Under the pieces are notes generated by a model. That model worked only from the letters and a program-made list of their open reading frames with translations, was not told the origin of the DNA and did no database searches. Below, piece after piece: positions 31,029 to 31,400 of a stretch of DNA of 64,000 nucleotides (positions are counted from its first letter, which is position 1; each line of letters starts with the position of its first letter). This DNA comes from Emticicia sp. CRIBPO (GTDB lineage: Bacteria; Bacteroidota; Bacteroidia; Cytophagales; Spirosomataceae): positions 88,808-152,807 of the forward strand of contig NZ_JAAAKV010000003.1 of NCBI RefSeq assembly GCF_009905725.1, in the 5' to 3' direction. The translations under genes and the position numbers were made by a program.

Positions 31029-31400
31029 TTAAAATGGCTGTGGTGCGGGTTCGAGTCCCGCCCCTGAAAAGGGTAGCTCAACAGGCAGAGCAAGCCCCAA
31101 CTATGCAGGTTCGAATCCTGCTTTCATTTATACAATGAAAATGCAAAATGGCTGTTGCTCCGGGTCAACTGACCCACAAAACAAAGAATGGCGACTTTTC
31201 AAATGCCCGCCGGTACCGTGCCTGAGCTCTAGCAACAGAATGTTGCATGCTGCAAGAAACTTAGCAGGTAAAACACAGGAATGAAGTCTGAAAGAAACAT
31301 TGTGGCCCACTCTGTTCGTTTCCCGCCCGGGTGGGATAAGCAGGAGAAAGTCAGCAAAGGATCTGCCGGACTTTCAGACTTTCTTTTATTTCCGTTTGGA
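31029..31400 (+). ncRNA. Candidate noncoding RNA locus: a tRNA-like element (D-arm plus T-arm, no anticodon arm) at ~31064-31128, preceded by an isolated T-arm (31045-31061) and followed by a diverged copy (31145-~31260) and a stem plus U-run (~31277-31395). Possibly a Y RNA-like tRNA mimic, or pseudo-tRNA remnants.
   Basis: GCTCaacaggcaGAGC D-arm and GCAGGttcgaatCCTGC T-arm with a canonical TTCGAAT loop. Only 13 nt lie between them, too few for an anticodon arm. Upstream is GCGGGttcgagtCCCGC. The direct repeat aaaatggctgtKg occurs at 31031 and 31145. Confidence 0.3.

Follow-up and report, generated by a model that had tools for sequence, protein, structure and literature searches.

A structured RNA with two circularly permuted tRNA-like modules upstream of the SPFH and rtcB genes of Emticicia sp. 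CRIBPO

Two tRNA-like modules in front of the SPFH gene

The stretch of DNA described here, 64 kb of Emticicia sp. CRIBPO (contig NZ_JAAAKV010000003.1) and referred to throughout as the window, contains a gene for an SPFH/Band-7 (slipin) protein with the gene for the RNA ligase RtcB directly after it, and, on the other strand, a gene for a WYL/WCX regulator. The gap of 754 nucleotides (nt) between the regulator and SPFH genes holds the whole of the element that is the subject of this report, a structured RNA on the plus strand that includes two tRNA-like modules. A first-pass annotation of this DNA had already placed such an element beside rtcB, and the identity of the downstream gene is borne out by Pfam. 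The SPFH protein is 100% identical to an Emticicia sp. CRIBPO protein and has thousands of relatives, for the most part in Bacteroidota. The coordinates of the individual features are collected in Table 1.

The T-loop motif GGTTCRANTCC occurs twice in the window, where 0.36 occurrences would be expected by chance; both copies lie in this gap, on the same strand and 60 nt apart. ARAGORN found 0 tRNA genes in the window. In the first-pass annotation a D-arm followed after 13 nt by a T-arm was taken for a tRNA-like element with its anticodon arm missing, with a second T-arm standing isolated upstream. Direct reading confirms all three arms and their spacing, but the way in which they were grouped was wrong. 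Across related loci the repeating unit is a T-arm, then a stacked and closed acceptor hairpin of 4-8 base pairs (bp), two nt (usually TA) and a D-arm. The arms are two tandem, circularly permuted tRNA-like modules, each with a closed acceptor-like hairpin in addition to a canonical T-loop/D-loop ‘elbow’.

An anticodon loop is lacking in module 1, which is enclosed by a short anticodon-stem-like helix; in relatives this closing helix has 4-6 bp with a 5-nt ‘variable loop’, and its sequence differs from locus to locus (GTTGT/ACAAC in Pedobacter, and many other variants). The linker between the modules stands in the variable-loop position of module 2 and is 7-12 nt long in other two-module loci. 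Module 2 does possess a stem-loop in the position of the anticodon arm, contrary to the earlier statement that the element has none, although in the window it carries a tetraloop. Of 43 related loci that could be parsed, 34 have in this last hairpin an anticodon-like loop of 7 nt, mostly CTnnnAA, the commonest anticodons of such loops being TTT or GTT. The 13-mer aaaatggctgttg at 31145-31157, previously taken as the start of a diverged second copy, is a real repeat (12/13 identical to 31031-31043); it does not begin a copy, however, but makes up the D-loop and the 3′ side of the D-stem in module 2, and the repeat was not seen in the related loci read. Its interpretation as a duplicated leader was rejected for these reasons.

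Conservation and covariation of the modules

Related loci were taken from one-per-species genomes via the alignment of the SPFH protein (80 loci) and were supplemented with three closer metagenomic loci, giving 83 sources in which individual loci are labelled L0xx. T-arm motifs are found 330-700 nt upstream of the SPFH start in nearly all related loci. A covariance model, R1, was built from the module alignment; upstream of SPFH it reached at least 55 bits over its full length in about 73 of the 83 sources, including loci that were not in its seed (L071, L073, L076, L081, L085, L060, L070 and L072); the loci with the element come from many Bacteroidota families. In the window R1 matches the two modules and nothing else, with 57.5 bits on module 1, where the window sequence belongs to the seed, and 25.2 bits on module 2 (T-arm and hairpin). 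The number of modules, two in the window, ranges from one to three across the relatives.

Each module was also examined for compensatory change. In alignment A2 of module 1 (64 modules) 96.5% of positions assigned as partners are paired, compared to 72.4% after shuffling and 43-49% when the partners are slid; the covariation score is 0.715 observed against 0.235 shuffled, and changes on both sides are seen in 17 of 20 pairs. Similar values were obtained with module 2 (alignment A5, 24 loci), with 95.6% paired against 71.1% shuffled and 29-44% slid and a covariation score of 0.718 against 0.260; its T, acceptor, D and anticodon-position arms all covary. Conservation in orthologous loci had been proposed at the outset as a check on the element, and the modules are indeed kept, with covariation, in related loci.

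These data also dispose of two simpler parses. A standard-order tRNA, in which D-arm 1 and T-arm 2 are combined without an anticodon arm and closed by the outer hairpin halves, was rejected: each hairpin covaries as a hairpin, and in loci such as L026 the two lack mutual complementarity. A tRNA gene or pseudogene cloverleaf was rejected likewise, since the helices in the acceptor position are closed hairpins that covary as such and the order of the arms is permuted. Where R1 matches more weakly, it does so at the junctions of real tRNA genes standing in tandem, such as that of two tRNA-Val genes in L046, which suggests that the modules arose from such junctions.

RtcB is encoded downstream in 55 of the 80 loci (within the fetched flanks), and in 38 of the 80 a divergent WYL regulator gene is found upstream. 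In L042 and L052 rtcB is upstream instead, yet the RNA is still found immediately before SPFH; the linkage of the RNA to the SPFH gene is strict. A phage origin was rejected, as viral contigs gave no relatives of the SPFH protein.

Further genes accompany the system in some relatives. The closest metagenomic relative, L081, carries upstream of its WYL gene a second RtcB together with a PrfH-type release factor, and two RlaP nucleotidyltransferase genes between SPFH and RtcB (extra-gene spans 1-818 and 4336-7098). In many loci there are same-strand arrays of genuine tRNA genes (19 in L033, 18 in L034, 13 in L072 and 11 in L062), which flank the SPFH gene and, with up to 19 genes, cover most amino acids. 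A recurring neighbour, upstream of the structured RNA in L016, L021, L033, L034, L038, L044 and L069, is a gene for tRNA-Tyr(GTA). The arrays look like a backup set of tRNAs tied to the repair system.

The flanking domains and the extent of the RNA

Upstream of the modules, the arrangement TGCGCAAA-N5-CTGCGYA-N13-15-CAnCTTTG is kept 620-930 nt before SPFH in at least 19 loci. It contains operator-like repeats of the TGCGYA type, to which the WYL regulator probably binds, and this region also aligns with L081 and L085. The promoter-like box that follows, CAACTTTGCA in the window, resembles the Bacteroidetes promoter type TAnnTTTG and would place the start of transcription at about 30858-30865. 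A 5′ hairpin and a conserved sequence come next (the motif GGAATGGCAAYACT is present in this region of the Pedobacter loci), and then a junction domain with hairpins Pa and Pb enclosed by helix Pc. The loci used for this domain (alignment A4, 32 loci) were picked by sequence motifs alone and checked by hand; Pa and Pb together are 93.8% paired in them, compared to 72.3% shuffled and 28-66% slid, with a covariation score of 0.668 against 0.221. Pc and the closing helix of the 3′ domain fall out of register in MAFFT and are based on searches within each locus rather than on column counts.

A CCTGATGAG-like box occurs in the 5′ junction domain of many loci, as CCGGATG in the window; a hairpin whose loop is TTTCTGTATAG comes after it, with CATAGTG next. 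The arrangement lies at 30948-30975 in the window and has equivalents in L026, L050, L021 and L017. This region recalls the core of a hammerhead, and Rfam gives no match. A hammerhead ribozyme, at which a CUGAUGAG-like box in some loci hints, was rejected on the grounds that there is no Rfam hammerhead match and the GAAA box is absent.

Downstream of module 2 lies an H-type pseudoknot. Its topology (a purine-rich P1, an A-rich third loop, and P2 formed with the first loop) is found in about 50-60 loci, with more than 25 different P2 sequences among them, and a pseudoknot score of at least 9 was obtained in 67% of 79 loci but in 13% of shuffles. No pseudoknot or preQ1 family of Rfam matches it (searched at E up to 10 in this region of the window and up to 0.05 in 7 loci), and a preQ1-type riboswitch, of which preQ1-I is topologically similar, was ruled out accordingly.

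The remainder of the RNA is a 3′ domain closed by a long-range helix of 12 bp, two of them G-U pairs. When each locus was searched for a helix joining the first 35 nt downstream of the pseudoknot to the final 170 nt ahead of SPFH, the mean score was 21.9 compared to 16.6 for shuffled sequences, and clear closing helices of 11-18 bp are present in L016, L019, L026, L029, L050, L059, L064, L068, L074, L075, L081 and L085. The interior of the domain is poorly conserved in sequence; a search for conserved primary-sequence motifs in it gave GATACCG alone, in 18 of 60 loci and absent from the window. The two strands of the closing helix (GGTACCGTGCC at 31212-31222 and GGTACGGTGCC at 31415-31425) are near-identical, quasi-palindromic direct repeats, so that each can also form pairs in more than one register, either within itself or with the other copy.

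Directly after the closing helix comes a U-tract, which would form a terminator-like 3′ end. A run of T follows the closing helix in many loci, often in the form GAAAG...CTTTC-TTTT, although by a strict count (at least 4 T in 8 nt) it qualifies in 39% of loci. The helix encloses about 190 nt in the window, and a standard terminator scan makes no call there.

From the promoter-like box and the U-tract the whole RNA is predicted to be about 570 nt long, from about 30860 to 31433 on the plus strand, and to be the first transcribed element of the operon. The minimum free energy (MFE) fold of 30866-31436 has -179.6 kcal/mol (z = -2.75) and recovers most of the comparative helices. These limits differ at both ends from those of the first-pass annotation, which described an independent block of 372 nt comprising two copies plus a terminator. 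The long-range stem with which it ended the RNA, at about 31395, does exist (31286-31294 with 31371-31379), but it is an inner helix of the 3′ domain, outside which the closing helix and U-tract extend the RNA to 31433; the start at 31029 is likewise superseded, the RNA extending about 170 nt farther upstream. Both the boundaries and the parse of that block were therefore incorrect.

Table 1. Positions of genes and RNA features. Positions refer to the window except in the last five rows, which refer to the sequences of the related loci named. MFE, minimum free energy fold.
Feature	Position	Strand	Basis or remark
WYL+WCX regulator gene	29641-30690	minus	Divergent from the RNA; Pfam scan
Operator-like repeats CTGCGTAA and CTGCGTAG	30814-30821 and 30827-30834	plus	Between WYL/WCX gene and putative RNA promoter
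Promoter-like -7 box CAACTTTGCA	30844-30853	plus	Conserved CAnCTTTG after operator repeats
5′ hairpin CTCT-gaaaa-AGAG (30909-30921), then conserved GATGGCAGTATTGA	30909-30935	plus	Aligned with L081 and L085; in MFE
5′ junction domain	30942-31006	plus	Alignment A4, pair counts, MFE
Closing helix Pc, CCAGC with GCTGG	30942-30946 with 31002-31006	plus	Read by eye in several loci; MFE
Pa hairpin CAG-tttctgcagaa-CTG	30956-30972	plus	Preceded by CCGGATG, followed by CATAGT
Pb hairpin	30978-31001	plus	Covaries
Conserved ATATGCTG	Overlaps end of Pb and Pc	plus	
Module 1, YrlA-type permuted tRNA-like domain	31036-31096	plus	Rfam YrlA; alignment A2; R1
Module 1 anticodon-stem-like helix, GGCT with AGCC	31036-31039 with 31093-31096	plus	4 bp
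Module 1 variable loop	31040-31044	plus	5 nt
T-arm 1, GCGGG-TTCGAGT-CCCGC	31045-31061	plus	
Module 1 closed acceptor hairpin CCCT-gaaa-AGGG	31062-31073	plus	
Module 1 TA dinucleotide	31074-31075	plus	
D-arm 1, GCTC-aacaggca-GAGC	31076-31091	plus	
Linker CCAACTAT	31097-31104	plus	8 nt; direct reading
Module 2	31105-31178	plus	Alignment A5; R1
T-arm 2, GCAGG-TTCGAAT-CCTGC	31105-31121	plus	
Module 2 closed acceptor hairpin TTTCATT-tatac-AATGAAA	31122-31140	plus	7 bp
Module 2 AT dinucleotide	31141-31142	plus	
Module 2 D-arm GCAA-aatggctg-TTGC (GCAAaatggctgTTGC)	31143-31158	plus	
Module 2 hairpin in anticodon-arm position, GGGTC-aact-GACCC	31162-31175	plus	Tetraloop in window
H-type pseudoknot	31183-31211	plus	Downstream of module 2
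Pseudoknot P1, AAAG with CTTT	31183-31186 with 31195-31198	plus	
Pseudoknot P2, GGCG with CGCC	31190-31193 with 31208-31211	plus	Loop between is TCAAATGCC
3′ domain	31212-31425	plus	Closed by long-range helix; MFE
Closing helix GGTACCGTGCCT with AGGTACGGTGCC	31212-31223 with 31414-31425	plus	12 bp including two G-U pairs
Inner helix GTCTGAAAG with CTTTCAGAC	31286-31294 with 31371-31379	plus	Most of it in MFE
TTCCG motif	31390-31394	plus	Inside 3′ domain
U-tract ATTTTTTT	31426-31433	plus	Directly after closing helix; 12 nt before SPFH ATG
SPFH/Band-7 (slipin) protein gene	31445-32548	plus	Pfam Band_7 6e-26; ATG at 31445
RNA ligase RtcB gene	32553-33974	plus	Pfam RtcB 3e-81; directly after SPFH gene
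tRNA arrays, L033 and L034	L033: 2286-3323 and 5165-6641		
tRNA array, L072	25-2198		
tRNA array, L062	2211-3163		
tRNA array, L075	103-1535		
tRNA array, L073	486-1382		

Known relatives and possible roles

With Rfam in gathering mode nothing was found in the window, and in 15 loci only real tRNAs and marginal ‘tRNA’ matches on the stretch from D-arm 1 to T-arm 2. In E-value mode the window gave YrlA (RF02553) at 34.4 bits (E 1e-5; 31037-31095; model positions 23-85 of 114) and tRNA, with the anticodon arm deleted, at 25.4 bits (gathering score 29; 31067-31129); the tRNA model scores 30-34 bits on the stretch from D-arm 1 to T-arm 2 in relatives. YrlA matches of 29-47 bits were obtained in the window and 7 loci, on both modules and always with the tRNA-like domain of the model, whose gathering score is 69. 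No Rfam family covers the 5′ domain, the pseudoknot or the 3′ domain, and the weak matches to CRISPR-DR41, tsr33, frnS and sR2 in the window were set aside as chance-level.

In the crystal, YrlA's tRNA-like domain is described, in a preprint (bioRxiv 10.1101/312249), as an anticodon stem, a T stem-loop, a closed acceptor stem-loop and a D stem-loop. The modules have the same permuted order, including the variable loop, and canonical T- and D-loop nucleotides, and they too are encoded in an operon with rtcB. There are, however, several differences. Model positions 1-22 and 86-114 are unmatched and the closing helix has merely 4 bp; no terminal Ro-binding stem is possible because T-arm 2 begins 8 nt after the closing helix of module 1. 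The modules are in tandem, and the RNA of about 570 nt that holds them also contains a 5′ junction domain, a pseudoknot and a closed 3′ domain; the linked protein is SPFH, not Ro. The criterion of Chen et al. 2014 for YrlA was a gene no farther than about 4 kb from rsr (Ro60/TROVE), whereas here Pfam found no TROVE/Ro domain in the 18 open reading frames (ORFs) of the window that were scanned (all non-overlapped ORFs of at least 350 amino acids except one of 2880 amino acids at 35164-43806, plus others, including the neighbouring genes). The Y RNA of the first-pass annotation therefore survives as tRNA mimicry in the manner of YrlA, and not as a strict Y RNA, given the sub-threshold score, the match to the tRNA-like domain alone and the lack of a Ro stem and, among the ORFs scanned, of a Ro gene.

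A Band-7-associated tRNA-like RNA beside RtcB was predicted by Burroughs and Aravind 2016, according to bioRxiv 10.1101/312249, where it is described as ‘strongly resembling an authentic tRNA’ and as not validated experimentally, and where YrlA is said occasionally to adjoin a Band-7 protein gene. On that description the position and partners are the same as here, with Band_7 and RtcB directly downstream, but the window differs in that it contains no authentic tRNA-like gene (ARAGORN makes no call and the Rfam tRNA score, 25.4, is below 29). The association of an RNA with SPFH and RtcB is thus known as a prediction, and no other paper among those searched speaks of it; the composite RNA with tandem modules is apparently undescribed as far as could be checked, the original 2016 model not having been compared. 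In one locus, L048 (Flammeovirgaceae; 3838-3977), a single tRNA-Tyr-like gene stands behind the same TGCGCA operator and promoter, immediately ahead of SPFH, and there is no composite RNA; this is probably the ‘authentic-looking’ b7a-tRNA form.

Other known systems are similar in part. Permuted tRNA genes of the Cyanidioschyzon merolae type also have the 3′ half upstream of the 5′ half with a short linker between, but those mature via a circular intermediate into functional tRNAs, of which there is no indication here, and module 1 lacks an anticodon loop. The vault particle (major vault protein, vault RNA and the TROVE protein TEP1) shares beta repeats, an SPFH-like shoulder, a long helix and a small structured RNA; the protein here has three repeats only, and the RNA is unrelated to vault RNA. 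ROOL and GOLLD RNAs resemble the present one in having several hundred nt, a covarying structure of many domains and, often, tRNA genes nearby, and differ in that there is no Rfam match here, the context is chromosomal rather than phage, and the tRNA mimics are explicit.

Starting from the observed anatomy, covariation and linkage to SPFH, the reading that we favour, with a probability of roughly 0.5, is that this is an operon-encoded, tRNA-mimicking non-coding partner RNA of an SPFH-RtcB repair module, functionally parallel to YrlA-Ro60. The operon appears to be controlled by the divergent WYL/WCX regulator, and on release of the promoter by this regulator the RNA would be made with, or just ahead of, SPFH and RtcB. 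It would then work in trans as a tRNA-mimicking partner of the SPFH protein, as YrlA does for Ro60; acting as a scaffold, cofactor, competitor or decoy, it may bring enzymes that recognise tRNA for repair or processing (RtcB, RlaP nucleotidyltransferases), or nucleases directed against tRNA, to an SPFH assembly.

A number of points weigh against this proposal. The 5′ and 3′ ends of the transcript, taken from motifs, as well as the binding to SPFH and the role in repair are things that we infer. The U-tract is only 12 nt from the SPFH start and no separate promoter was found, so that the RNA could act in cis as a leader. The window copy is without the 7-nt anticodon-like loop kept by many relatives, and any role that depends upon such a loop would not apply here. 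Furthermore, the module alignments were gathered with a parser that demanded pairing, which inflates the percentage paired; the unbiased part of the evidence for the modules is the variety of pair types together with the independent R1 matches.

The cis-acting alternative is the main rival, although we regard it as distinctly less probable than a partner RNA. The RNA would then be the 5′ untranslated region of the SPFH-rtcB mRNA, and the long-range helix and U-tract a conditional terminator. Whether the helix forms would depend on the modules being cleaved, bound or modified, and tRNA damage would in this way be coupled to read-through into the operon. The U-tract leaves no room for a promoter before the ATG, the 5′ strand of the closing helix starts right after the pseudoknot, the GAAAG...CTTTC-TTTT form is typical of intrinsic terminators, and the RNA is always directly upstream of SPFH. 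Against this, a helix that encloses about 190-250 nt is unusual for a terminator and no alternative (antiterminator) pairing was found; in L073, L075, L064, L044 and L054 a distance of 78-160 nt separates the end of the helix from SPFH, where there is room for a separate promoter. Also, Salmonella YrlA, with the same module design, acts in trans. Rather improbable is a decoy for toxins that target tRNA, in which the modules, together with the anticodon-like loops of relatives, would soak up anticodon nucleases and further tRNA-directed effectors, or inhibit them by competition, while RtcB reseals damaged tRNAs. Hughes et al. raised the same idea for YrlA; the canonical CTnnnAA loops of many relatives, mostly with anticodons TTT or GTT, would suit it, as would the arrays of real tRNA genes (L033, L034, L072, L062). 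The window copy, however, has a tetraloop in place of the anticodon loop in one module and no loop in the other. One RNA copy per operon would be a weak sponge, and we know of no nuclease in this context.

The three other alternatives are much less likely. A genuine Y RNA, with its Ro60/Rsr partner protein encoded at another place in the genome, would account for the sub-threshold yet consistent YrlA matches, and a context next to rtcB is typical of YrlA, but we consider it very unlikely when the score is half of the gathering score and confined to the tRNA-like domain, no terminal stem offers a Ro-binding site, the scanned ORFs of the window include no TROVE protein, and the tightly linked protein is SPFH. 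Marginally less credible again are permuted pre-tRNAs, from which functional tRNAs would result once RtcB had joined the cut transcripts and the acceptor loop had been opened. The order of the arms fits, module 2 of many relatives has four arms with an anticodon loop, and the R1 matches at junctions of tandem identical tRNA genes suggest such an origin; RtcB belongs to the class of ligase used for this joining in other organisms. But the acceptor loops have 3-8 nt and those read show no CCA/discriminator pattern, there is no evident motif for a splicing endonuclease, and the anticodon loop is missing from module 1 and replaced by a tetraloop in module 2 of the window. Finally, decayed tRNA fragments or a functionless integration scar, the alternative raised in the first-pass annotation, would explain the tRNA features of the arms in a window without an intact tRNA. 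This explanation is refuted by the conservation and covariation data, as about 73 loci, belonging to many Bacteroidota families, share this architecture at the same position, with compensatory changes in every helix and covariation of the flanking domains too.

A partner RNA of the kind favoured here could, more tentatively, be taken further. It may represent a new class of large structured non-coding RNA of Bacteroidota, with one to three permuted tRNA mimics, that is part of a damage-induced ribonucleoprotein with a short SPFH protein resembling major vault protein; this could be a bacterial counterpart of Ro-Y RNA or vault particles, organising RtcB-dependent repair of tRNA or sensing nucleases directed against tRNA. 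The locus bears on what bacterial RtcB repairs and what the tRNA-like RNAs that adjoin it do. It is a Ro-independent, phylum-wide example in which the tRNA mimic has been duplicated and built into a far larger RNA, and it defines a set of partners: the WYL regulator, SPFH and RtcB, with RlaP, PrfH and tRNA gene arrays in relatives. The coordinates, the covariation-backed structure and the candidate operator make the predicted Band-7-associated RNA directly testable, and genera that have the system (Pedobacter, Sphingobacterium, Chitinophaga and Emticicia) can be cultured. The family is absent from Rfam, and annotation is apt to record parts of it as weak tRNA pseudogenes.

Two observations concern the surroundings of the operon. 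Directly past the 3′ end of the WYL regulator gene, and on the opposite strand to it, 27603-29635 is occupied by two genes, one for a radical-SAM protein (TIGR03916, ‘putative DNA modification/repair’) and one for the partner of this protein, DUF4130/TIGR03915; they are a pair of the DNA-repair type beside the RNA-repair operon. About 1.2 kb downstream of rtcB begins the single ORF of 2880 amino acids already mentioned.

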